DNA from: a virus
DNA: 64,000 nucleotides
Virus record (IMG/VR): IMGVR_UViG_3300034175_000062
Coordinates: 1 to 64,000 of that record
Strand: one strand, 5' to 3'
Part shown: in pieces, positions 9,320-63,759 of the stretch
Numbering within the stretch: position 1 is the stretch's first letter
Layout of the letters: each line of letters begins with the position of its first letter
Notes under the pieces: generated by a model
Told to the model about the DNA's origin: nothing
Databases searched by the model: none
What the model saw: only the letters and a program-made list of their open reading frames with translations
Position numbers and translations under genes: made by a program

Positions 9320-9348
9320 TTGACAATATATAGCTTTGATGATATAAG
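9320..9348 (+). promoter_or_regulatory. sigma70-type promoter for the glycosyltransferase gene
   Basis: TTGACA-N17-TATAAG, then AAGGA RBS before ATG 9374. Confidence 0.75.
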
Positions 9349-9373: not shown

Positions 9374-12013
9374 ATGTTAGTAGCTATCGTAGACCTGTTG
9401 GGGTCTCCGTATGACGGCAGCACGCTTGTTCAGCGTGGGCTAGGTGGTTCAGAATCAGCAGTTATCTCTATTGCACGTGAGCTGGTTAAGGCTGGCCTGT
9501 ACGTAGACGTATATAATGACTGTACCTCTATGGATGCCACACCAGGTAATTATGGCGGCGTCTATTACAATGATCGTAATGATCTCAGTAATCCTGATGC
9601 ATATGAGGTGATGATCTCCAGCAGGTCAGTACGTCCATTCCTAGAGCCAAGGGTTAATCCTAAGCAGAAGCGTATCCTATGGATGCATGACACGTTTGCT
9701 GAGGGTGATGGCCAGCTCGAGTCGATGGTAGTCAATGGGTTGATCGATGAGATCTGGACTCTGTCTGACTTCCATACGCAGTATCTAAGCACGTGTGACC
9801 ACGGCCATAAGCGCATGGGTGAAGTACTCAAGCGTAAGATCTGGCAGACTCGTAACGGTGTTCATCTGTACAATGACCACATCGACTTTAAGAATAAGAA
9901 CCCTAATCGGTTCGTATGGAACGCCGCGACTAACAAAGGACTCGCGGTCCTACTGAATAGTGTCTGGCCACGTGTTCGTGAGCTCATTCCAACTGCTCAG
10001 CTCGATGTCATCGGCGGCTACTACAAGCTAAAGGGTGCGGCTGACGTCCAACAGCAAGAGTGGGACCTGCTCAAGAAGATGCACGCTGGTAAAGATGGCG
10101 TATGTTTTACTGGAGTCATACCGCAGGATGAGGTCGCATCTTATCTAGAGTTCGCTTCGTTCTTCATCTATCCCCAGGCGCTGCCGGAAACTTTCGGCAT
10201 CAGCACACTCGAAGCACTTGCTAATGGTGTGACTCCGATTACCGGACGCTTCGGTGCTCTCGAAGAGATAGCTATCGAAGAAGCCAGCTACCTGATGGAC
10301 TACCCAGCTGTTTCAAACACGCTCTACTCGTTTAACGATGAAGCTCATATTCAAGCCTTCGTAAACTTAGTAGTGAGCGCTTGGGATGACCAATACCTCT
10401 GGGCGCAGAAAGCAAATAAAGCGCTATCCGTTCGAGATATCTGCACGTGGGATACTATCGCCCTTCAGTGGAAGCAGCATCTCTATAATATCACTGGTCG
10501 ATACTTGCCGGTTGACGAATACCGCAAAGTTACTGAGATCAATCAACGCGTAAAGGAGGTCTTCAACACAAAGTGGAGCAATCCTGAAGAGCGTACAGTC
10601 AACGTTAGTGACCGTTTCCAAACTTGGTTCCAGGTCGTTGTCCCGTTTCGTAATGCTGAGAAGTGGATCCGTCGCTGTATCGAGTCTATCGTAGCTCAGG
10701 ACTACGAAGCATATGAAGTCACCCTGATCGCCGATGATCCGACTGATGACTCCATTGCTATCGCTGAATCAGCTATCGCGGCTCTTCCAGATCGTATTCG
10801 TCATGGCTTTACTCTAACCAAGAACTCTAAGAGTGTCGGTGCACTATCTAATCAGTGTCGTGCTATCGAGTACTTCACTGAAGAAGAGGTAGTCGTTCTT
10901 ATTGATGGTGATGATCGGCTTGCCAACGACCCTCATATTTTTAGTCGTCTAAATAGGCTATATAAGAATGGAGGTAGGTTCACCTACGGCAGTAGCTGGT
11001 CTGATGCTGACAACATTCCACTGATCGCTCAGGCATATCCACCGAATGTTCTTAAAGAGAGGACGTACCGTGACTACAAGTTCGCCTGGAACGTTCCGTA
11101 CACGCATCTTCGCACTTTTGAAGCTTCACTATATCACCGCTGCGATAAGTCTCTGCTTACTGATGAGTCTGGTGCTTTTCATCGTGCTGGGGGTGATACC
11201 GCCTTATTCTACGCGCTTATGGACGTTGTTGAGCCCGACGGCATCCGTGTTGTCAGAGACATTCTCTACCATTATAACGATATGAACCCTGAGAATGACT
11301 ACAAGATCAACTCAGAAGAACAAACAAGGACCGCAAATAAAGCTATGTCACAAAGAATAGATGATCGTACTGACAGCATTAACAATCAATACGAAGACTC
11401 GTTTCATCACAGTGATACGGTCAAGAAGATTCTGATCGCTATTCCTACGGCTAATGGGATCCACCCCGAGACCTTCAAAGCTATCTACGATCTTGATATT
11501 CCAGTCGGCTACAAAGCAGATTTTCAGTTCTTCTATGGGTACTGCGTCGATCAAGTCAGGAATCTGATCGCTGACTGGGTAGTTAGGGGATACGACTATC
11601 TGTTCTCTGTCGACTACGACATGGAGTTCCAGCCAGACACGCTACGTAAGCTTATCGAAGCTGATAAGGATATTGTATCTGGTCTATATCGTCAGCGTAA
11701 GGAAGAGGTCATCTATGAGGCATACACACTAATCAGTGCTGGCAGTCATATTAACCTACGTCCGGGTATGCTGAATACCGAAACGCTCACTAGGTGTAGT
11801 GCAGTTGGTCTTGGATGCGCTCTTATCAAGAAAGAAGTATTCGTAGAAATCGGATATCCTCAGTTCAAATACCATCATGCACTATTGATGGAGCACACCA
11901 AGTCTGAGGATGTCGACTTCTGTGAGAAGGCTACCGCTAAAGGCTTCAGTATCTGGCTAGATCCGGCTGTGGTATGCAACCACTGGGGTAAGACATCATT
12001 TAACGTTGCATAA
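9374..12013 (+). CDS. three-domain glycosyltransferase (GT-B/GT4-like + GT-A/GT2 + GT-A)
   Basis: LGGSE, WMHD, ETFGISTLEA (GT4); VVVPFRNAEKW, LIDGDD (GT2); ILIAIP, SVDYD, GLGCALIK, SEDVDFC (GT-A). Confidence 0.88.
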   Translation: MLVAIVDLLGSPYDGSTLVQRGLGGSESAVISIARELVKAGLYVDVYNDCTSMDATPGNYGGVYYNDRNDLSNPDAYEVMISSRSVRPFLEPRVNPKQKRILWMHDTFAEGDGQLESMVVNGLIDEIWTLSDFHTQYLSTCDHGHKRMGEVLKRKIWQTRNGVHLYNDHIDFKNKNPNRFVWNAATNKGLAVLLNSVWPRVRELIPTAQLDVIGGYYKLKGAADVQQQEWDLLKKMHAGKDGVCFTGVIPQDEVASYLEFASFFIYPQALPETFGISTLEALANGVTPITGRFGALEEIAIEEASYLMDYPAVSNTLYSFNDEAHIQAFVNLVVSAWDDQYLWAQKANKALSVRDICTWDTIALQWKQHLYNITGRYLPVDEYRKVTEINQRVKEVFNTKWSNPEERTVNVSDRFQTWFQVVVPFRNAEKWIRRCIESIVAQDYEAYEVTLIADDPTDDSIAIAESAIAALPDRIRHGFTLTKNSKSVGALSNQCRAIEYFTEEEVVVLIDGDDRLANDPHIFSRLNRLYKNGGRFTYGSSWSDADNIPLIAQAYPPNVLKERTYRDYKFAWNVPYTHLRTFEASLYHRCDKSLLTDESGAFHRAGGDTALFYALMDVVEPDGIRVVRDILYHYNDMNPENDYKINSEEQTRTANKAMSQRIDDRTDSINNQYEDSFHHSDTVKKILIAIPTANGIHPETFKAIYDLDIPVGYKADFQFFYGYCVDQVRNLIADWVVRGYDYLFSVDYDMEFQPDTLRKLIEADKDIVSGLYRQRKEEVIYEAYTLISAGSHINLRPGMLNTETLTRCSAVGLGCALIKKEVFVEIGYPQFKYHHALLMEHTKSEDVDFCEKATAKGFSIWLDPAVVCNHWGKTSFNVA

Positions 12014-12052
12014 ATATAAGAACAGATAACAACTTAAACGGTACTATAACTA

Positions 12053-12931
12053 ATGGCTCTACGCGATCTCGTCCGCTGCTCTGTAGTCGGAACTCCAGGC
12101 ACCGGTCCTATCACAATCGGCAATCCTGACGCGGATGCACTCTCATTCGAACTAGCTGGCGTCTTTAACGGTGAATATGTTACCTATGGCGTATCAGATG
12201 GAAACGCTCGTGAGATTGGTGTTGGTCAGTATAACACTACCACTAAGGTTCTAACGCGAGTTAAGGTTCGCAAGTCAACTTCTGCTGACACGATTCTCAA
12301 TCTTTCGGCAGCTGCTAAAGTCTTCCTTACATCTACTTCTACTGAGTCATCATTCCTTAATTACAACTACATGCCAGGGCGCTACTACACGCCAGGCAGC
12401 TGGGTCGCAACGTCCGGCGCCACCACGGCTGTAGGTCTTACAATCTTTCGCGGAGTTCAGTTCCGAGCTCCTATGAGAGCTGTATCTACCGCTACTAGGG
12501 TTGCTACCGCTCAGGCAGGTGGCTTATACCGCTATGGACTTTATGCAAGTGATCCAAAATGGTTTGCTCCAGTTGGAGCTCCAATCTTTGAGTACGAAGC
12601 CAACGGAGCAAACGCCTCGGTTATGCAAGAAATTGCATGTGATGTATTCATCGATACAGGACTCTACTTCCAAGCTTTTCAATCTAGTAACGCATCTATC
12701 ATATTATCTGGTGGTGGTATGAGCATGTGGGATACACACGGCTTCCGCGCTACTAACACTCTTCAGTTTAGTTCTACAGGATCATTCTATAAGCTTCCGA
12801 CTACGACTGGTGTCTACAGTACACTGCCGGTTCTTAACTCAACCTTTACTGGCGTTCCGGCTAACGACGCAGGTCTTGATACCGGACAAGATAATCGCGC
12901 CGGTATCGGTATTCAGTTTAAAGCTGGTTAA
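12053..12931 (+). CDS. putative virion/fibre-associated protein
   Basis: N-terminus (GTGPITIG...YGVSDGNAREIGVGQY...LNLSAAAKVFLT) resembles fibre N-terminal modules of alphaproteobacterial phages; CATAAATA late-type box near 12009. Confidence 0.6.
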   Translation: MALRDLVRCSVVGTPGTGPITIGNPDADALSFELAGVFNGEYVTYGVSDGNAREIGVGQYNTTTKVLTRVKVRKSTSADTILNLSAAAKVFLTSTSTESSFLNYNYMPGRYYTPGSWVATSGATTAVGLTIFRGVQFRAPMRAVSTATRVATAQAGGLYRYGLYASDPKWFAPVGAPIFEYEANGANASVMQEIACDVFIDTGLYFQAFQSSNASIILSGGGMSMWDTHGFRATNTLQFSSTGSFYKLPTTTGVYSTLPVLNSTFTGVPANDAGLDTGQDNRAGIGIQFKAG

Positions 12932-12935
12932 AGCG

Positions 12936-13499
12936 TTACTTCCACTTAGGTCCTTCAATCCAGCTGACGAGAGACATACGCTCTCCTGAAGTCACTGGTA
13001 GGACTCGGTGCATATAGAACGATGGGAAGATAAGCACTGAACCACGCTTCTTGAACGTTTCAGGCGGGTTTGGTGCACCCATGAATTCGAAGTCGCCTCC
13101 TTCATAGTCAGCAGGATCACTCAGCTGAACTACGATAGAGAGCTTACGATCATACGGAGATGGGTTCTCGAAGAATACGTCATGGTGCCAATCGTACTTT
13201 CCTTTAGCCGTTCCATGATACTCGGTGAACTGAATCTCGTTCATCTCGGTAACATCAAAGCCAAAGTTAGTACGATTGGACTTCTTGATGAATTGCATCA
13301 GTAGCGAAGCGACATCAGAGTCATCGCCATCAGTATCCAACCATCGAATGGTTGAAGATCGGTAAGAGTTTACTGCGGGACCATCGGGATCAAATCCGAT
13401 GGTCGCTTCGCGTGAGGGTCTAGCCTTACCCTTTTCGATGATATAGTCACATTGCTCAGGCGTAACTGCTTCAGCCCAAACTTCCCACAAATTCTTCAT
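12936..13499 (-). CDS. 2OG-Fe(II) oxygenase (prolyl-hydroxylase-like/PKHD type)
   Basis: YDWHHD (HxD), RKLSIVVQL, YEGGDF, FPSFYMHRV, R.SLVSW. Confidence 0.92.
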   Translation of the reverse strand: MKNLWEVWAEAVTPEQCDYIIEKGKARPSREATIGFDPDGPAVNSYRSSTIRWLDTDGDDSDVASLLMQFIKKSNRTNFGFDVTEMNEIQFTEYHGTAKGKYDWHHDVFFENPSPYDRKLSIVVQLSDPADYEGGDFEFMGAPNPPETFKKRGSVLIFPSFYMHRVLPVTSGERMSLVSWIEGPKWK

Positions 13500-13510
13500 T
13501 ACTTACTCAC

Positions 13511-15745
13511 TTATTTAATAAGCGCCCTTAGTTCCTTAATAGCTTCAACTAGGAGCGGGACTAGCTTTGCGTAGTCCAGTGTCATATACTGTGCATCGAT
13601 AGGAGCCGGACGGATAACCTCTGGCATGATGCTGTTCACTTCTTGAGCAGACAGACCAACATGTGTAACATCACCATCATAACCGAGATCAATAGCGGTC
13701 TGATTAGGACGGTAATAGAATCCATTCAGCGACTCAATCTTATCGAGTGCATTGTCAATCTTATTTAGACGTGTTTTCAGACGGTCATCTGAATAGAAGG
13801 CTATGATATCATTGGTCGCGTAGATCGTACCAGCCGCACCAAGAGGCGAAATAGGTCCAACCGCTAGCGTGTTAACCTGAGCATTAGAGTTAGTTGAGAA
13901 GCCGCCTGGGATACCCTGAATACCCTGCGGACCTTGAGGACCGAGCGGACCAGTTGGACCCGTAGGACCCTGAGGACCAGTCGGCCCAGACGGACCAACA
14001 CCACCCTGAATACCCTGGCCACCTTGTGAACCAACATAGCCGGTCGGACCAATCGGACCAACAGGGCCTACGGGACCAGTCGGACCTGTGAAGCCTTGTG
14101 GACCAAGCGGACCAGTTGGGCCTAGAGGACCAGTAGCGCCAAGCGAACCAGTATATCCAAGTGGACCGAGTGGACCTACAGGACCAGCGATGCCCTGAAT
14201 ACCCTGCGGACCTTGAGGACCTAGTCCACCAATGGATCCATTGTAGCCAGTTGGACCAAGAGGTCCCACAGGGCCAGTAGGGCCAGAGATGCCCTGGATA
14301 CCCTGAATGCCGGTAGAACCATTGTATCCAGTAGGACCGATAGGACCATTAGGACCGACAGGACCAGTACCGCCGCGCGAGCCGGTGTATCCCTGAGGAC
14401 CAATACCGACTGGCTGCCAAGAGCCGTCACCTCGTAGATATGTTTCTGTGTTAGCTACACCGATACCTAGACGAAGTGCTGGTACGACACCAGAGGTGAT
14501 ACGAGCCGCGTCCATCGAACCAGAAGTAAGTGTTCCGCTTAGTGCTAGGTTACTAGCCTGCACATCACCGGCGATAACTGATCCAGTCGTCTGGACACCA
14601 GTTGATGTCAACTGACTCCATGCTGTGGTATTACCAGTACGAACCAGACCACTAATGATTGAAGTACCAGCACCGACAGTAACGTTGTTAGCGATAACAG
14701 TCGGGGTATTCACACCACCGTTTAGATTAGATGCAAAGCTGACGTTAAGAGTATTTGATACATACGCATCGATAGCATATAGAGTCCAACGCTTGTTGAC
14801 CACACCCAGTGCATATGCGTTAGTCGCTGGGATGAAGTCACCAGTCGAAGTACCAGTAACGACTAGGTTACCAGCCGAGATGATGTCTCCACCAACTCGT
14901 AGAGTTCCCTGAACGTTAGCTGATGCTAGAGTCGCAAGACCGGTAGTAAGAATGAATCCACTACCAATCATGGTAGTACCGGCACCAGTCGAAACTGAGA
15001 CGCCCGCCGCATTAATACCGCCAGCAAATGATGCTAGGTTAGCAACGTATAGAGTATTACCAACCGTAGTAGCACCATTCGAGAAGAAGATGTTACTGAA
15101 CGAGGCAATACCAACTACGTTCATAGTACCAGAAACAGTAACGTTACCGGTAGCGTTCACTAGGTTAGCTAGTGTGCTTACTCCAGTGACGCTAATTGTG
15201 TTTGCGATACTTACTGAGCCGCCAATGTTGACATTAGCTGCAGTGTTGATCGTAACGGCTGAGATCTGAGTATTGACGGTAGTGTTACCGACAGTGATCT
15301 GTGCAGGACCAACAATCGTATTACCAGTTGCAAAGCTGGTCGTATTAACACTACTGATACCGAGCGAGATAGCCGTTGAATTTGCAACAAGATTACCAAG
15401 GCGGAGATCAGTTACGTCTAGCCTGGTATTAGCACCAAGTGAGATAGACGTCGCGTTAACTGTCGTCTGACTAAGGGGTGCTTTGACCGCAATAGTGGTA
15501 GTCGTTACAGATACGTTAGAGTTTGAAACACCAACAGTGACATTTGATGTAGCGATAGCAACATTAAGCGTGGTGATAGCTGTAAGTGCTACGTTGCCGG
15601 TTACATTAGCAGTACCGGTGACTGCAAGATTAGCATCTGGGTTAGCATTGTTAATGCCGACCTTACCAGTTCCACCCTTCGCTACGATAAGTGTACCGTT
15701 AGCGATTACGCCATTCTTAGCTACGAATTCTTTATCTAGTGCCAT
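13511..15745 (-). CDS. tail fibre with collagen-like Gly-X-Y region and C-terminal S74 intramolecular chaperone
   Basis: About 170-aa GPxGPxG/GYxGS run; C-terminus SDDRLK...GLSAQEV...[16 protein letters not shown]. Confidence 0.88.
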
Positions 15746-15775: not shown

Positions 15776-15783
15776 TATTTATA
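15776..15783 (-). promoter_or_regulatory. T4-type late promoter TATAAATA
   Basis: Exact TATAAATA on the minus strand about 30 nt upstream of the fibre gene. Confidence 0.75.
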
Positions 15784-55117: not shown

Positions 55118-55385
55118 GTTTAACTTCGTCGGACCAGGAGTCCATGAGGTCGATATCCTCCTCTTCATGGGTCCGATGTCCGATGACGATGGTCCGTTCC
55201 TACGGATGCCAGACAACTGGTCGTTAGCGCACGTGATGCACCACGCTGGTCTGTTTCCGAGCGTCGGCCAGGCGAAGAAGAATGGCTGGGACAAGCCGAT
55301 CGAGCCGGGCTTCTCACATTTCGTCGTAACCAAGCGGAAGATCGCCGTCTGGATACTGACTCGTTTCGAGGGTTGCTTTGAATGA
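55107..55385 (+). CDS. protein with S4-like (TyrRS C-terminal type) RNA-binding motif
   Basis: SLAHVMHHAGLFPSVGQAKKNG. Confidence 0.62.
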   Translation: MKPEFNFVGPGVHEVDILLFMGPMSDDDGPFLRMPDNWSLAHVMHHAGLFPSVGQAKKNGWDKPIEPGFSHFVVTKRKIAVWILTRFEGCFE

Positions 55386-56050
55386 TTATCGGTGTCTCGC
55401 TAGACTTCTGGGGTACGATCGCGAAGCCTAATCCGAAGTACTCTACCGCTCGAACTGCGTACTTCGCTGAGCTATTCGGTGTCGAGCCGGAGGTCGCTCA
55501 TGCCAAATACGTCCAGATCAAGCGTCACGCTGACTACGCTGCCGAACACTTCGGGACTGCGTATCATCCGATGGCTCAGATACGATCACTGTTGAACTGC
55601 GAGAAACTGACGCGCAAGGTCGATGCATGTGACGTCTATTATGATCTGATGCATCGCGTTGCTCGCTACAAACCCGTCATCTCGCCATCAATGAAAGCGC
55701 TGCTCAAGCGAGCGTCGCCGCTGTTCGTGATGGGTATCACCTCGAATACCAATTTCATACCCGGTCATGTGCTCGCGTCATTGATACCATCCACGTTTGC
55801 TGAACCGACGTGGTCTGATGTCGTCGGCATCTGCAAGCCGTCACCGGAGATATTCAACCAGACGTACCGTTCCCTCGTCACGAAGAACGGCGCTGCGATC
55901 AAGCCGTGGGAGATACTGCATATCGGTGATAACTACAGGTGTGACTACGTTGGGGCTACGCGTTTCGGCTTTCAAGGCCGTCACGTCAAGAGCGTAGAAG
56001 AAACTGAGGCTGTGCTTCAGATGATTATCGACCAGGGAGAGCTTGAATGA
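55382..56050 (+). CDS. HAD-superfamily hydrolase
   Basis: SLDFWGT (motif I variant), TSN, KPSPEIF, HIGDN..CD..GA..G. Confidence 0.88.
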   Translation: MIIGVSLDFWGTIAKPNPKYSTARTAYFAELFGVEPEVAHAKYVQIKRHADYAAEHFGTAYHPMAQIRSLLNCEKLTRKVDACDVYYDLMHRVARYKPVISPSMKALLKRASPLFVMGITSNTNFIPGHVLASLIPSTFAEPTWSDVVGICKPSPEIFNQTYRSLVTKNGAAIKPWEILHIGDNYRCDYVGATRFGFQGRHVKSVEETEAVLQMIIDQGELE

Positions 56051-56916
56051 CGACTCATATGGCTATTAAGCAGTTTGGCGATCTAACCGACCAGATGAAG
56101 CGCGAGTGGGGCAGGGCGTATTCGATGTTGAAATTCGGCGATGACACCGTTGCCAAGAACTTCGCGTACAAGATGGCTGATGCGTTCTTCGACAACTACA
56201 CCGATCTGTTCACAGACGACCAGCCTCAGCCGGTGATCATCCCGGCTCCCTGCAGCTCGAACGTGCCGATCGCGTCTAAGATGCTGGCGGATCACTTCAT
56301 GCATCGACTCAATGCGATCATGGCTGATCGCATGCTGCCGCCTGTCGAGATGACGCTGATGCAGCGGCTGAATACGTACTACAATAACTACTGCCATCTA
56401 GAAGAGAGCGAACGGGCTCGTCTGTTGGCGCAAGACACGCTCTACATCAATCGCGATTTTATCGCCGGCAAGCGGCTGATCTTCGTCGATGACTGTACGA
56501 TCACTGGCACGCACGAGAAGAACATTATCCGTTTCTTCGATGCTCACGATCTCAACAACGAGCTGTACTTCGTCTGTTACGCCAACTATACTGGCGCGGA
56601 TCCGACTATCGAGGGGCGACTCAATCACCTCTACATCAAGTCGGCGGATGACGTGCTCCGTCAGTACTGGCGGATGTCGCTGATCGGTGAGCGGTTTATC
56701 CTGACCACTCGCGCGGTGCGTCTAATCCTCGAGGCTAACGAGGATGCGTTCCGGAGGTTCATTCACGAGTTTCCGCAGACGTTCATTAACGAGCTGTTAC
56801 ATGCGGCGATATCGAAAGAGTATCACCTCTACGAAGATTACACTAACAACTTCCTTTATCTGAAGGCGTGCTGTGCAAAAGAGTTGACATTTCCAAAACA
56901 ACATGTTATAGTATAG
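56047..56916 (+). CDS. ComF-like phosphoribosyltransferase (PRTase_3, Ter-associated type)
   Basis: YSMLKFGD, VPIAS, PRPP-binding loop LIFVDDCTITGTHE, IEGRLN. Confidence 0.8.
   Translation: MTTHMAIKQFGDLTDQMKREWGRAYSMLKFGDDTVAKNFAYKMADAFFDNYTDLFTDDQPQPVIIPAPCSSNVPIASKMLADHFMHRLNAIMADRMLPPVEMTLMQRLNTYYNNYCHLEESERARLLAQDTLYINRDFIAGKRLIFVDDCTITGTHEKNIIRFFDAHDLNNELYFVCYANYTGADPTIEGRLNHLYIKSADDVLRQYWRMSLIGERFILTTRAVRLILEANEDAFRRFIHEFPQTFINELLHAAISKEYHLYEDYTNNFLYLKACCAKELTFPKQHVIV
56884..56912 (+). promoter_or_regulatory. sigma70-type promoter
   Basis: TTGACA-N17-TATAGT. Confidence 0.7.
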
Positions 56917-56974
56917 TTATTGCCTGGGTTCGTCGGCTCGATGATACTCTGGCCGACGAACCTATGGAGTTGCA

Positions 56975-57847
56975 ATGCGTCCTGATATGAAGAAGCTGCT
57001 CTGTGAGCGGCCTCGGTATGGCGGCGGTTACGATAAGCGTAATCGTGGTTACGCTAAGAACGCGTCCTTTGACGAAATGCCGACCAAACAGAGCATGTCT
57101 CGCGGTCGTCACGGCACTAAAGAGTTCGGTGAGTTCCTCGCCCCGCTGAAGCGCTTCATCAAGAAGCAGGTGGGCCGCAAGTGGAACGACGTCTTCTCCG
57201 AGATCTGTGAGCACATCAACGGTTACAATCCCGTTCAGACCCACATCCTCGAGCACGTCGATGGCTATATCTCCATCAAGGTGCAACGTGTCAGCACCAA
57301 CGAGTCGAAGACCGGCTTTGTTTCTCACGGTGGTATCCGTCCTGAGAGCAGCAGCTGGCGTCATCCTCTTCGTGCTGGTGAGTTGTACGTCGATCCGGAT
57401 GATAACATCATCAAGGTGGCTAAGAACATCGTCAAGGACAAGCCGAAGCCGCCTCCTGAGAACAAGCTGAAGGTCTTCAATCGTAATCTGATCGGTGTCA
57501 AGGAAGAGGGAATCTGGTACACGATCGATCTGAAAGACTATAAGGACGGATCGAAGTGGGACTGGTGGTACGGCATCGATCCGCCGGATAAGAACCAGGA
57601 TAACGTCGGCAATGCCAAGTACGGCCATTACACTCGGATCAAGCTGATCGACGGCAAGCAGTACAACGACTATTTGTACGGTTCCAACAAGAATCGCTGG
57701 GGCGACTACTTCGAGATCGGAGTCTATCTACCCTGGAATTGGCGTGGTCGTAAGGCGATCGGCCTTCGCGAGAATATCGTTGGACACCACAAGGTCCAGA
57801 TGACATCCAAGCTGCTTCGGCAGCATAACCTGAAGAACGACCGATGA
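56975..57847 (+). CDS. hypothetical protein (basic)
   Basis: MRPDMKKLLCERPR, LAPLKRFI..QVGRKWNDVFSEI, LYVDP. Confidence 0.8.
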   Translation: MRPDMKKLLCERPRYGGGYDKRNRGYAKNASFDEMPTKQSMSRGRHGTKEFGEFLAPLKRFIKKQVGRKWNDVFSEICEHINGYNPVQTHILEHVDGYISIKVQRVSTNESKTGFVSHGGIRPESSSWRHPLRAGELYVDPDDNIIKVAKNIVKDKPKPPPENKLKVFNRNLIGVKEEGIWYTIDLKDYKDGSKWDWWYGIDPPDKNQDNVGNAKYGHYTRIKLIDGKQYNDYLYGSNKNRWGDYFEIGVYLPWNWRGRKAIGLRENIVGHHKVQMTSKLLRQHNLKNDR

Positions 57848-58206
57848 CTATTATTCTATTGCTAGCGCTTCTGTTTACGAAGCATCTTGTATTCGACTTT
57901 ATCTATCAGCCACCGTATCAGTGGCAGAATAAAGGAACGTATGGACACCTTGGTGGAATTATCCACACTGGGCAACATGTAATTGCCTCATGGTGTATCC
58001 TATTGTTCTTTACCACTTTACCTCTCTGTGCCCTTCTCTGTGCCACAGAAGCATTGATCCATTACCATATGGATTGGTTTAAGATGTGGTATAACAAGAA
58101 GAAGGGTTGGGGAGCGACCACGCACAATGAGTTCTGGATACTGACCGGAATCGATCAGTGGGTCCATGCGATGACTTACATCCTCATGGTCGCTCTACTT
58201 CTTTAA
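57844..58206 (+). CDS. DUF3307-like membrane protein
   Basis: KHLVFDFIYQ, HYHMDWFK, GIDQWVH. Confidence 0.8.
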   Translation: MTIILLLALLFTKHLVFDFIYQPPYQWQNKGTYGHLGGIIHTGQHVIASWCILLFFTTLPLCALLCATEALIHYHMDWFKMWYNKKKGWGATTHNEFWILTGIDQWVHAMTYILMVALLL

Positions 58207-59211: not shown

Positions 59212-60627
59212 TTAGAAGAAGTTGAGGATAGTAACACGGCCAACGGCACCATTACCACCAGAGCCAGTAACAGCAGCGGTAGTGTTTAAGTGAGCGCCAC
59301 CGCCTCCTCCGCCACCGCCTGGAGCAGCGCCATCTGCGCCGCTGCCAGATGCTACACCTGCTGTGTTTGCTGCGGGACCTCCGCCACCACCCCAGCCGGC
59401 GTCAAGCGATAGAGCTACACGGTTAGCTCCTGACGCAGGGAGACTCTGATCGTCATATATCGCTCCGTAGCTGCCGCCCCATGACATGTAGTTCATGTAG
59501 TTGATACCATCTGATCCAAGCTTGCCGCCGTTACCAGCTACGACATCAGCTTTGCCATCAGCAGCAACGCCAGCGCCTGCACCACCACCCGTTGGTGATT
59601 GATCAGTATCTCCACCAGAAATCGCTTCAGTAGCTTCAAAGTCTAAGATAGTACCAACGCCAGAGCTTCCACCCTTACCGCCCGAGAACGTGCCGAACTT
59701 GTTGGTTGGCGTGTTGATATTGATCATACCACCTCGGCCGCCTCCAGCTGAAGCAAATGATCCAAACGAGCTATTACCGCCAGCCAGAGCAGATACCGCA
59801 ACAGTACTATTTGCAGTAACACCGGACGATTTAGCTCCACCTGCGCCAACAGTGACTGTTACAGTCGGCGTTAGAAGTGCTGCAGGGATCCATGCCACAG
59901 TCTTAGCGCCACCGGCGCCACCTGCTCCGCCTTTTGCTATCGTTCCAAGAGCCTGCTTCGAGCCGCCCTGACCACCTCCACCTGCTCCATAAACGTACAC
60001 CTGAACTGCCTTTAGACCAGCACGAGCGGTCCATGTGAAAGTACCTGCTGTCGTATACGAATCAATGATGAGCGTACCGCCAGTTCCGTTAGTACCTGCA
60101 GCGCCAGCCGATCCAGTATATCCCGTGTTGCCACTAAGTGGTCGAATGGTATATCCTAGACCAGCAGCAACAGTACCAACGATAGTCACCGTAGTATCGG
60201 TCAGTGTGTAGTCAGTGGTTGGTGTTTGAATGATACCATTGAGTGTAACAATGATATCGTTGACAGTAAGACCAGTGATTGGTAGCGTTATCGTCTGGTT
60301 AGCAGTCGCTGTTGTAGTACCGACAACTGGTGTAAACGCGCTAGAGCCAGCGCTCGGACCAATTGGACCAACTGGACCCGGTACTGTCGATGCTGAACCA
60401 GTATAGCCAGTAGGACCGACCGGACCGTTAGGACCAGTCAGACCAGTTGGTCCAGTTAGGCCTGTCGCGCCAGCTGAACCGTTATATCCAGTTGGACCGA
60501 TTGGACCAGTTGGACCCGTAGGACCGATCGGTCCAGTGGCACCTTGCGATCCTGTATAACCATTGCCGGCTGGGCCGGTTGGTCCGCCTACAGCGCCGGC
60601 GACTTGTGATGCACTAAGAATTCTCAT
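59212..60627 (-). CDS. collagen-like plus glycine-rich-domain fibre protein
   Basis: N-terminal GPT/GYTGS triplets, LNGIIQTP module, Gly-rich domain. Confidence 0.82.
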
Positions 60628-63411
60628 TTATCGTATCCTGATTGCGATTAGTTCTGCGGCGTTGATAGTCACACCAGTTTGCGTATCGATGTAGACGAAT
60701 AGACGTAGTAGCTGTCCGGCAGTCAATGCCATAACTCGTCGGTTCATCTCTCCGTGTCTTACTTGAGTGCCGACTGTAAGAGCGCCTGGTGACGTCCTCC
60801 ATAGGAATGCTGGACTATCTACGTTAGAAGTGTCGATACCAATACCCCAACTGAACTTAGCGTTACTAGCTGTTCCATCGCTGAAACGTATCTTGCCCTG
60901 GATGTCGTAGATGCCAGTCTCTGGCACCGTCCACTGGCCATTGGTAGTATTGAACGCTCCGCCACCTGTGTTCGTTGTAACAGTATTTAGAACTACCGTA
61001 TTAAAGCTTCCTGCTCCGATCGCTCCAGTAGTTGTATTCGTCGACGCGATAAGAACTGGGAAGTTCGATGATGCATCGACACCGGCTGAACCAGTATAAC
61101 CAGTCGTTCCACTGAGTGGACGAACTGTGTATGTCATACCAGCTTCTGTTGGACCAACGAGCTGAAGCGTAGATGCAATGATGCTATAGTCGGTGATTGG
61201 ATTCTGAACAACACCGTTTAGCGTTACGATAACATCGTTAGCACCAAGAGTAGCAGATGGTAGGGCGATGGTGTAGTTGTTAGTACCATTTACCGAACCA
61301 GTTACAGGAACAAACTGAAGCGAACCAGCGCCCGTTCCCTGTAGTCCAGTCGGACCAGTTGGACCAGTTGGACCAGGAACAACTGAAGCCGAGCCAGTAT
61401 ATCCCATCGGACCAATCGGACCAGTTGGACCAGTCGGACCCAGTGGACCAGTCGGACCTAGTGGACCTACAGAACCAATCGAACCGTTAAAGCCGGTTGC
61501 GCCAGTTGGACCAGTAGCACCCTGAGAACCAGCGTAGCCGATCGGACCCTGAATACCCTGAGCACCGCTTGGGCCAGTTACACCTTGAATACCCTGTGAG
61601 CCATTCGGACCTACAGGTCCTGCTGGGCCAGTTGCACCGATAGAACCAGCGTAGCCGATCGGACCTTGTGGACCGACAGGACCAATCGGGCCTTGGATAC
61701 CTTGTGGACCAGCTGGACCCGTGAGACCGAGTGGACCTGTTGCGCCAATAGAACCGTTATAACCAGTGACGCCCTGCGGACCAATCGGACCAGCAGCACC
61801 AGTAATACCAATCGAACCAGTGTATCCTACAACGCCCTGTGGACCTGACGGACCGGTAAGACCTGCCGGACCAGTGAAGCCCTGCGTTCCCTGTGGTCCT
61901 GTAGCACCAATCGATCCTGTAAAGCCTGCAGTTCCTTGTGGACCAGTCGGACCAGCCGCACCAGTCGGACCTGTTAGACCCGTCGCACCAGTGACACCGA
62001 TTGGTCCAGTAAGACCAGTCGAACCAGTAAATCCGCTCGGTCCTTGTGGACCAGTCAGACCTGTGAAACCAGTCGGTCCCTGAGTACCAGCCGAACCAGT
62101 ATAACCAGTTACGCCGATGACGCCCTGGATACCCTGTGGACCAGTCGGACCTGTTGGTCCAGTCGTTCCAGGAATACCCTGTGGTCCTGCTGGACCAGTT
62201 GCGCCCTGTGGACCAGTCGGACCTGAGATGCTGCCTACGTTAGTAAATACGTTACCATCATAGACGTACAGATTACCACTGATCAGATATGCGTCGCCGG
62301 TAGCGTTACCAGTTGTTGGTAGCTGAGATGAGCTAGCGAGTGTTCCAAGAATACGAACACTAGCACCAATCGAACCAGTATAACCTAGCGATCCAGTATA
62401 ACCAATCGTGCCCTGAATACCCTGCGGGCCGGTCGGACCTACAGGACCCGTTACACCCAGCGAGCCGCTGTATCCGGTTAGTCCCATGACGCCTTGTACG
62501 CCCTGTGAACCAGTATAACCGATTACGCCCTGTGGACCTACTGCGCCGATAGAGCCGTTAAAGCCGGTTGCGCCCTGAACGCCCTGTGGACCTACTGGAC
62601 CAGCAGAACCGACCGAACCGTTAAAGCCTGTTGGACCGATAGGACCAGCAACACCCTGGATACCTTGAATGCCCTGTGGACCGACACTGCCGATTGAACC
62701 GTTAAAGCCAGTCGGACCTACTGGGCCAGTCGTACCTTGTGGACCCGGACCACCGATCGAACCATTAAAGCCTGTTACGCCTTGTGGACCGACAGGACCA
62801 GCTGGACCAAGCGAACCCTGCGAGCCAGTGAAGCCGATTAGACCCTGAGCACCAACAGGACCCTGAGCTCCGATAGGACCAGCGACACCCTGTGGTCCTT
62901 GAGGACCAACTGAACCAGTCGGACCAGTCGGACCTACAGGACCTGCTACAAGAGATGCCGAACCGGTATAACCGATGTCACCACGCGATCCGTTGTAACC
63001 TACGCCCTGGATACCTTGAATACCCTGCGGACCTTCTGGACCCGTAGGACCGACGATGCCCTGAGCGCCAACTGCGCCTTGCGATCCAGTGTATCCCATC
63101 GGACCAGTTGGGCCAACGATAGTAGACGCTGAACCGACATAACCGGTGTCACCCTTTGAACCAGTGTATCCCTGCGATCCGGTATAGCCAAGTGAACCAG
63201 TATAGCCGATGGTCGTAGATGCTGAACCAGTATAACCGATCGATCCAGTATAACCGAATGAACCAGTAAATCCACGCGAGCCACCGTAACCCTTAAGTTC
63301 GGTACTTACGAGCATAGAGTACTGAGATGACGCATCAACGACTACTACACTGCCTTCGACAGTATAGTTAAGCATCGTGACTATTAGCGTGTAGTCATTA
63401 GAAGAGGTCAT
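60628..63411 (-). CDS. long collagen-like fibre protein with C1q/TNF-like C-terminal head
   Basis: About 600 aa of Gly-X-Y in two blocks; C-terminus [18 protein letters not shown]...LTAGQLLRL. Confidence 0.85.
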
Positions 63412-63751: not shown

Positions 63752-63759
63752 TATTTATA
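63752..63759 (-). promoter_or_regulatory. T4-type late promoter TATAAATA
   Basis: Exact match upstream of the collagen fibre operon. Confidence 0.75.

Follow-up and report, generated by a model that had tools for sequence, protein, structure and literature searches.

The first 64 kb of the 100,455-bp IMG/VR virus record IMGVR_UViG_3300034175_000062 (CheckV completeness 58%), referred to here as the window, contain at positions 9374-15745 a four-gene locus which, on balance, we take to be a module for finishing the virion fibres of a T4-like phage. Two of the genes, on the minus strand, encode a collagen-like tail fibre (P0004) and a 2-oxoglutarate (2OG)-Fe(II) oxygenase resembling prolyl hydroxylases (P0003); the other two, on the plus strand, encode a glycosyltransferase (GT) with three transferase domains (P0001) and a protein without collagen repeats (P0002). 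This reading is based upon the association of the oxygenase family with collagen genes in other phages, and upon the manner in which the composition of the collagens follows the enzymes encoded beside them. The positions of the fibre, oxygenase and GT genes given in the original prediction, an earlier reading of the DNA letters, were all confirmed by gene calls and domain matches (Table 1).

Collagen-like fibre and prolyl-hydroxylase-like oxygenase

The N-terminal shaft of P0004 is rich in Ala, Val, Thr and Asn, and is followed by a run of consecutive Gly-X-Y triplets and then by a C-terminal S74 intramolecular chaperone, which begins 36 residues past the end of the repeats and carries the Ser/Lys motif YSDDRLK. 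The S74 domain is likely to be the C-terminal trimerisation nucleus for the P0004 triple helix; with a long Gly-X-Y run and an adjacent predicted trimerisation domain, P0004 is by its sequence a collagen-like protein. Pro occupies the X position in 31 of the 56 triplets, and the Y position is taken by Thr (15), Gln (14), Leu (8), Val (7) and, in a single triplet, Pro. Both the Gly-X-Y fibre gene and its bias towards Pro at X and frequent Thr at Y had been predicted, as had two more collagen-like proteins at 59.2-63.4 kb, which were found to share this bias. In the larger of these (927 amino acids, aa) Pro is found at X in 70 and at Y in 2 of the 201 triplets, with Thr at Y in 66, and this protein is likely to be a further substrate of the modifying enzymes.

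Exact copies of the T4-type late promoter motif TATAAATA occur only twice in the window, at 15776-15783 and 63752-63759, both on the minus strand and each directly upstream of a collagen gene unit. P0003 begins 11 nucleotides (nt) past the stop codon of P0004 and is probably co-transcribed late with it. The late unit that was predicted for fibre and oxygenase is consistent with the short gap, the common strand and the late promoter; the GT gene is on the opposite strand and therefore outside the fibre's transcription unit. The GT does belong to the same locus, as expected, and is separated from the oxygenase by the additional gene P0002. Other structural genes are served by the looser ATAAATA, as against the exact TATAAATA at the collagen units.

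In P0003, H105, D107, H164 and R174, which do not vary among 51 homologues, correspond to the HxD...H iron triad and the basic 2OG-binding residue, Arg174 standing ten residues past the distal His. When the AlphaFold2 model (predicted local distance difference test, pLDDT, 95.5) was compared with solved structures, the top of the PDB list was made up only of protein prolyl hydroxylases, the best matches being 4iw3, 5c5t, 6t8m, PHD2 and 3gze (E 2e-11 to 1e-9, template modelling (TM) score 0.64-0.76). The enzymes among these matches are Pseudomonas PPHD bound to EF-Tu, vCPH of PBCV-1 (5c5t, second best, E 2e-10, TM 0.71), Dictyostelium and human PHDs, and algal CrP4H; by sequence the nearest solved proteins are PKHD/PiuC hydroxylases and CrP4H. 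The predicted prolyl-hydroxylase-like oxygenase directly behind the fibre gene was thus borne out by its domain match and its fold neighbours. P0003 is a bare catalytic core of 187 aa with no peptide-substrate-binding domain, and is predicted from the model to be a minimal prolyl-hydroxylase-type enzyme.

Collagen prolyl 4-hydroxylases (P4Hs), and those of the vCPH/CrP4H type, have Lys at the position of the 2OG C5 ligand. As judged from sequence, P0003 differs from the animal-type collagen enzyme in having no substrate-binding domain, in carrying Arg instead of this Lys, and in being offered almost no substrate with Pro at Y. Since only 1 of 56 triplets has Pro at Y, the classical X-Pro-Gly P4H reaction is without substrate in P0004. 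Hypermodification of DNA by a TET/JBP-type oxygenase together with a GT was considered and rejected, based on the PF13640 match with prolyl-hydroxylase fold neighbours and on the absence of DNA-modification genes adjacent to the locus.

On the minus strand of the window the genes for portal, tube, sheath, terminase, gp15, gp14 and gp13 follow one another in the arrangement of a T4-like myovirus, and by this gene order the source virus is one. Beyond gp13 come the four genes of the locus, next the large structural proteins and next the baseplate wedge genes, identified by phrog matches, so that the predicted position between neck genes (gp13, gp14 and gp15) on one side and baseplate genes on the other is correct.

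Table 1. Positions of the features of the locus and of the two further collagen-like genes in the window
Feature	Position	Strand	Evidence or remark
T4-type late promoter motif TATAAATA	15776-15783	-	about 30 nt upstream of the P0004 start codon
P0004, tail-fibre protein, 744 aa	13511..15745	-	PF01391 E 8.8e-20; PF13884 E 3.4e-11; many PHROG tail-fibre families
Collagen-like run, P0004 residues 449-616	13898..14401	-	script count, 56 uninterrupted Gly-X-Y triplets
Peptidase_S74 chaperone domain, P0004 residues 652-710	13616..13792	-	Pfam E 3.4e-11
P0003, prolyl-hydroxylase-like 2OG-Fe(II) oxygenase, 187 aa	12936..13499	-	PF13640 E 7.7e-16; phrog_61 E 9e-37
P0002, 292 aa, no collagen repeats	12053..12931	+	between GT and oxygenase; blastp
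CATAAATA, own motif of the P0002 gene	12009-12016		sequence motif
P0001, three-domain glycosyltransferase, 879 aa	9374..12013	+	Pfam, PHROG, motif conservation
P0001 domain 1, GT-B, GT4-type	9374..10513	+	PF00534/PF13692 E 1e-11, residues 180-306
P0001 domain 2, GT-A, GT2-type	10616..11353	+	PF00535 E 5.5e-18, residues 421-570
P0001 domain 3, small GT-A	11423..12010	+	phrog_1574; PF13506 match in a homologue; model
Second collagen-like protein, 927 aa, 201 triplets	60628..63411	-	triplet count
Third collagen-like protein, 471 aa, 30 triplets, Gly_rich_2 C-terminal domain	59212..60627	-	triplet count

Gene linkage and collagen composition in related phages

Overall, about 170 other phage fragments were used for comparison. 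Among 50,697 phage records searched by megablast with the locus, none was a close relative. In IMG/VR an oxygenase profile gave 381 matches, the best 80 of which were analysed together with 13 further loci; for the linkage counts one locus was taken per 90%-identity oxygenase cluster (50 lineages) and a gene with at least 10 triplets was counted as a collagen gene. At gene steps -4 to +1 from the oxygenase, 34 of 222 genes were collagen genes (fractions across these steps 0.16, 0.29, 0.15, 0.06 and 0.12), and none was found beyond step +3 or before step -7. Within five steps of the oxygenase collagen genes numbered 36 of 405, compared with 3 of 273 farther away (Fisher p = 5e-6). By this comparative sequence evidence the relationship between oxygenase and collagen is well supported.

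In the three closest relatives (L010, L105 and L106; oxygenase 59-67% and GT 52-53% identical to those of the window) the genes for GT, an FkbM methyltransferase, oxygenase and collagen fibre are contiguous. In two of them (L010 and L105) GT, FkbM and oxygenase share a strand and the oxygenase ends the operon, facing the fibre on the opposite strand; L106 resembles the window, where the oxygenase comes after the fibre and the GT lies opposite. The set of GT, oxygenase and fibre therefore survives rearrangements in which the oxygenase changes both strand and operon. The co-occurrence of the three gene types in relatives, which the original prediction had named as a check, is seen as a contiguous trio in these three phages and as a strong association of oxygenase with collagen, and the part of it that concerns the GT is weaker.

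Two observations on individual gene orders were made in addition. In L147 (IMGVR_UViG_3300002920_000062) the oxygenase adjoins a homologue of the three-domain GT that is encoded on the opposite strand as two separate genes (432 and 698 aa), with no collagen gene within 8 kb and collagen genes at the contig ends. In the loci L105-L183 a DUF6065 protein is often encoded between collagen gene and oxygenase.

The composition of the collagens was compared between loci with different enzymes. For the 46 collagens encoded within five genes of the oxygenase the median share of Pro is 62% at X and 2% at Y; for the 64 collagens of three-domain GT loci lacking the oxygenase the figure at X is 1.5% (Mann-Whitney p = 1e-18). 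The oxygenase is missing entirely from two complete genomes (202 kb and 365 kb) whose collagens are Pro-poor. In many loci the oxygenase is followed by a PLOD-like protein of 585-628 aa which consists of GT25, GT_PLOD and a C-terminal 2OG domain. Where this fusion is present, all seven lineages have at least 10% Lys at Y (17-38% of triplets); where it is absent, none of the 24 lineages with enough flank to judge does (0-3%; Fisher p = 4e-7). The oxygenases of L179/L180 and of L182 are more than 70% identical and yet these loci are split by the PLOD-like gene and by Lys at Y. This comparison shows collagen composition to track the predicted enzyme set, with the Lys/PLOD pattern acting as an internal control. 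An FkbM methyltransferase gene often follows the PLOD-like fusion in the loci L105-L183.

The cultured cyanomyoviruses S-PRM1 (L023, NC_055761, gp158-gp162) and S-CAM9 (L024, NC_031922) have the Lys-type arrangement. Their fibre of about 1,825 aa possesses an S74 domain and 59 Gly-X-Y triplets, of which 30 have Pro at X, 23 have Lys at Y and 22 have Thr at Y. Behind it come a 124-aa gene, two PF13640 oxygenases and the GT25, GT_PLOD and 2OG fusion, annotated as 'hypothetical' or '2OG-Fe(II) oxygenase'. With this related cassette in cultured phages, S-PRM1 and S-CAM9 offer a ready experimental system. For the phage of the window no match to PF25342 was found in the 100-kb record, which is 58% complete, and a tblastn search with the S-PRM1 PLOD-like fusion found nothing for this phage. 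PLOD-type lysine chemistry was rejected for this phage, based on the lack of a PLOD-like gene in the 100-kb record and on the near absence of Lys at Y from its collagens (0/56 in P0004, 1/201 in the 927-aa and 0/30 in the 471-aa protein).

The three-domain glycosyltransferase and its possible substrates

The fusion of three GT domains in P0001 was confirmed, the first two (GT4 and GT2) by Pfam matches and the third, of GT-A type, by phrog_1574, by the PF13506 match of a homologue and by modelling. The EX7E pair of domain 1 (E272, E280) and the DGDD motif of domain 2 (residues 511-514) are conserved in a homologue, and domain 3 contains the motifs SEDVDFC and DYD (747-749), the latter invariant in a 44-sequence alignment. 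The model of domain 3 (pLDDT 92.8) has a GT-A fold, for which structural comparison (Foldseek, VIA-align) gave Z scores of 21.0 with A197 of STIV, 19 with LH3 (residues 293-519), 17.6 with Mnn9, 17.0 with COLGALT1 and 16.8 with R699, as against about 14.5 for generic GT-A enzymes. As modelled, domain 3 is structurally nearest to the viral GT A197 and to the collagen-glycosylating group of LH3, COLGALT1 and R699.

P0001 belongs to a metagenome-only family without a name, which has more than 1,400 members. In IMG/VR a single-sequence pattern scan gave none, and a two-sequence alignment retrieved homologues; there were 401 matches, the best 80 of which were all full length. Many of the three-domain forms reach 1,116-1,152 aa, with an FkbM methyltransferase fused at the C-terminus. 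In 15 of 42 lineages the gene immediately upstream of the GT encodes a collagen, and collagen genes near the GT are all on one side, with non-structural genes on the other; by gene order, the GT marks the end of fibre-gene blocks.

Several points weigh against assigning the GT to collagen. When clustered at 70% the loci reduce to 11 GT lineages, among which collagen enrichment within three steps is not significant, and the gene orders link the GT to the edge of fibre-gene blocks generally and not to collagen as such. In the window the GT is on the other strand and has no clear late promoter. The nearest late-like sequence upstream, CTTAAATA, sits too near the start codon to convince and was not accepted as a late promoter. 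A sigma-70 scan for a GT promoter gave none that is credible (1 site, 12 expected). The sequence TTGACA-N17-TATAAG at 9320-9348 (+), upstream of the GT, is similar to the early promoters of this phage, without the final invariant T of the -10 box, and because this T is absent early expression of the GT from it is not claimed. The link between GT and fibre is plausible on comparative grounds and clearly weaker than that between oxygenase and collagen.

The first alternative to be weighed, which we regard as rather unlikely, is that the oxygenase alone serves the fibres and that the GT acts upon host envelope glycans, upon a non-collagen capsid or tail protein, or upon phage DNA. Besides the strand, the lack of an exact late promoter and the linkage to block edges, this is favoured by some three-domain GT loci (e.g. 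L078) without a collagen gene within 10 kb, by the label 'glycosyltransferase involved in cell wall biosynthesis' which the family carries in sources, and by published work in which cyanophage GTs are taken to modify host surfaces or DNA (PMC12801897); 'cell wall synthesis and modification' is the usual reading of such GTs. It is opposed by the location of the GT, which in every case lies within a virion structural module or closes one, and by the fact that in four related phages it has stayed contiguous with oxygenase and fibre through rearrangement. Moreover, there are no adjacent DNA-hypermodification genes to suggest a role on DNA, the P0001 sequence has no membrane or export features, and domain 3 is closer to protein (collagen) glycosyltransferases than to generic GT2 enzymes. 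If the GT does act on the fibres, candidate acceptors are Thr at Y, Ser at X, hydroxyproline (Hyp) and the shaft.

The protein encoded between GT and oxygenase, P0002, has no match in Pfam or PHROG. Its N-terminal 100 aa or so resemble those of collagen-like proteins encoded ahead of this oxygenase family in marine phages (residues 16-103, 30-35% identity by blastp), and P0002 is, by this similarity, a probable fibre or whisker protein with a shared virion-anchor domain. The N-terminal domain looks like a reusable virion-attachment module to which a collagen stalk is added or not.

Just before the second collagen operon, at 55382-58206 (+), are genes for a HAD-like hydrolase, a ComF-like phosphoribosyltransferase (PRTase_3, E 2e-43), a 290-aa protein and a DUF3307 protein, which may form a nucleotide or DNA-modification cassette. 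When the 55-58 kb region was checked for extra sugar or oxygenase genes, only the HAD hydrolase, the ComF-like phosphoribosyltransferase and DUF3307 were found.

Predicted maturation of the fibres

The course of events proposed here for the finishing module is inferred, in every chemical step, from gene content, conserved catalytic residues, folds, linkage and the covariation of substrates with enzymes. The fibre P0004 would be transcribed late and P0003 probably along with it, and the oxygenase would hydroxylate the still-unfolded collagen segments of the three fibre proteins rich in Gly-Pro-Thr/Gln, most likely at Pro in the X position, which would give Gly-Hyp-Y. P0001, with three intact transferase sites on one chain, would most likely furnish virion fibre proteins with a short O-linked glycan made of three sugars at most, for which Thr at Y is the leading candidate acceptor, and in relatives the fused or adjacent FkbM methyltransferase probably caps this glycan. 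The S74 chaperone would nucleate the trimer at the C-terminus, the helix would zip up and the chaperone would cleave itself off. Hydroxylation and glycosylation would stabilise or shield the Gly-Pro-Thr helix. Peptides of the type Gly-Hyp-Thr are reportedly stabilised by 4-Hyp at X, a result attributed to Bann and Bächinger in 2000, and Hyp at X occurs in annelid cuticle collagens.

The original prediction, that this phage builds hydroxylated and glycosylated collagen fibres with a one-polypeptide glycan assembly line, is thus upheld in part and by comparison. The link of oxygenase to collagen, the tracking of composition by enzymes and the conservation of all three GT motifs agree with it; the scarcity of Pro at Y, and a GT that lies outside the fibre unit and is tied to the edge of fibre blocks, do not.

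A number of further observations count against modified fibres, or against Pro at X as the residue modified. For this phage and its relatives alike the case for modification is a comparative one, the classical collagen P4H reaction is excluded, and hydroxylation at X is deduced from covariation. Fourteen of 42 oxygenase lineages (70% clusters), several of them on short contigs, have no collagen gene within five genes, and the loci share descent, so that the p-values overstate their independence. In G006 and G007 the oxygenase has no adjacent collagen gene and the collagens are elsewhere in the genome; in G007 the giant collagen far from the oxygenase has an intermediate 11% Pro at X, and in G008, the closest complete relative, Pro at X is just 16-23%. 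Two collagens are clear exceptions to the Pro-at-X rule (L136, 2/46; L160, 1/13). In the G004 locus (L185, G004:C1:53000-70000) the oxygenase comes after four short Pro-poor collagen-like genes of 10-20 triplets each, which may point to another target residue. Finally PPHD, the best structural match of P0003, hydroxylates EF-Tu and not collagen. Given these exceptions and the lack of phylogenetic independence among loci, Pro at X is the leading candidate for the target of the oxygenase and is not established.

The exceptions in L136, L160, G004 and G007 bear directly on a second alternative, that both enzymes act on the fibres through other chemistry, the oxygenase on Gln, Asn, Thr or a non-collagen residue and the GT on Ser at X or on the shaft. 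Gln is the second commonest Y residue in P0004 and is dominant in some relatives, Ser, Tyr and Phe are abundant at X in the collagens linked to three-domain GTs, and the 2OG-binding residue of the oxygenase is Arg where collagen P4Hs have Lys. We nevertheless give this alternative little credence, since the closest solved folds of the oxygenase are all prolyl hydroxylases and Pro at X best separates oxygenase-linked from oxygenase-free collagens. A host-directed or metabolic oxygenase (an EF-Tu or ribosomal prolyl hydroxylase, a 2OG-consuming auxiliary metabolic enzyme or a secondary-metabolite enzyme) that lies beside the fibre by an accident of a hypervariable region would fit PPHD as best structural match, PKHD/PiuC hydroxylases as best PDB sequence matches, the more distant family members adjoining DNA helicase genes in cultured cyanophages and the secondary-metabolite roles proposed for cyanophage dioxygenase arrays (Iyer et al. 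2010, PMC2938197), but is very improbable in view of the strong positional enrichment beside collagen genes in many lineages, the covariation of collagen composition with enzyme complement and the probable co-transcription with the fibre from a late promoter.

Fibre finishing by P0003 and P0001 would have parallels in several known systems. Mimivirus likewise encodes collagens and the enzymes that hydroxylate and glycosylate them (the lysyl hydroxylase/glucosyltransferase L230 and the GT25 protein R699, compared here with LH3/PLOD3 and COLGALT1), and the architecture of PLOD/LH3 and L230 recurs as a true GT25, GT_PLOD and 2OG fusion beside Lys-at-Y collagens in relatives including S-PRM1 and S-CAM9. 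The window differs in having no PLOD-like gene and almost no Lys at Y, and in a GT built from GT4, GT2 and GT-A domains; with a bacterial host, the chemistry would have to run in the cytoplasm without an endoplasmic reticulum. P0003 is a small single-domain prolyl-hydroxylase-type 2OG oxygenase like PBCV-1 vCPH, CrP4H and the Bacillus anthracis P4H, to which it is about 19-21% identical, with Arg in place of their Lys and a presumed target of Gly-Pro-Thr/Gln (Pro at X) instead of (PAPK)n, (SP)n or X-Pro-Gly.

Gly-Pro-Thr-rich collagens that depend on Thr O-glycans for their stability or surface are known from Bacillus BclA, where Thr of the GPT repeats is O-glycosylated, and from Riftia cuticle collagen, which carries galactosyl-Thr at Y (PMC11923368, PMC8968730). 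As cited in PMC11923368, Ac-(Gly-Pro-Thr)10 stays a random coil if its Thr residues are not galactosylated; the same review notes an anomalously high frequency of TGP triplets among viral collagens. The multi-sugar glycan of BclA with its methylated cap (anthrose) parallels the three-domain GT plus FkbM of the relatives. The enzymes of BclA and Riftia are unrelated or not known; here the transferases are fused, located in a phage structural module and paired with a hydroxylase. In mycobacteriophages, GTs encoded near structural genes are said to decorate capsid and tail-tube proteins of the virion, in work ascribed to Freeman et al. in 2023. That system involves no collagen and no oxygenase, and its GTs are separate genes. 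P0004 has the same architecture as the phage fibres which combine a collagen motif with S74 (endosialidase/T5 L-shaped-fibre type; Escherichia coli prophage collagens, PMC3368898), which differ in being regarded as unmodified (PMC8968730, PMC11923368).

According to textbooks and recent reviews, prokaryotic and phage collagens are generally without hydroxylation (PMC8968730, PMC11923368), and among viruses mimivirus alone modifies collagen (PMC8968730). In a 2025 cyanophage paper a 2OG oxygenase was detected among the virion proteins, with no connection drawn to fibres (PMC12801897). Our literature search on phage or cyanophage collagen together with hydroxylase, PLOD or 2OG enzymes found no paper describing the linkage. 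Collagen finishing was found published only for animals and giant viruses, and the sequence comparison suggests that phages carry it out as well. Tentatively, and with more reserve than for the locus itself, phages may possess a widespread collagen maturation code of their own, unlike the animal one, in which a minimal hydroxylase would act on Pro at X of Gly-Pro-Thr/Gln and would be combined in modular fashion with a PLOD-like enzyme where Lys stands at Y, or with the three-domain GT, plus an FkbM O-methyltransferase, for glycosylation of the fibre.

If this is true, small soluble enzymes such as a hydroxylase of 187 aa and a single-chain triple GT could help to make modified recombinant collagens in bacteria. 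The 2OG-Fe(II) or 'P4H' genes of marine viromes have so far been called 'cryptic' in their role, as in a Baltic Sea virome paper (PMC9301287), or been given host-metabolism or secondary-metabolite functions (PMC2938197). Abundant viral 'auxiliary metabolic genes' of this kind in aquatic viromes would then be reclassified as virion-maturation genes, and collagen hydroxylation and glycosylation would extend to the viruses of bacteria.

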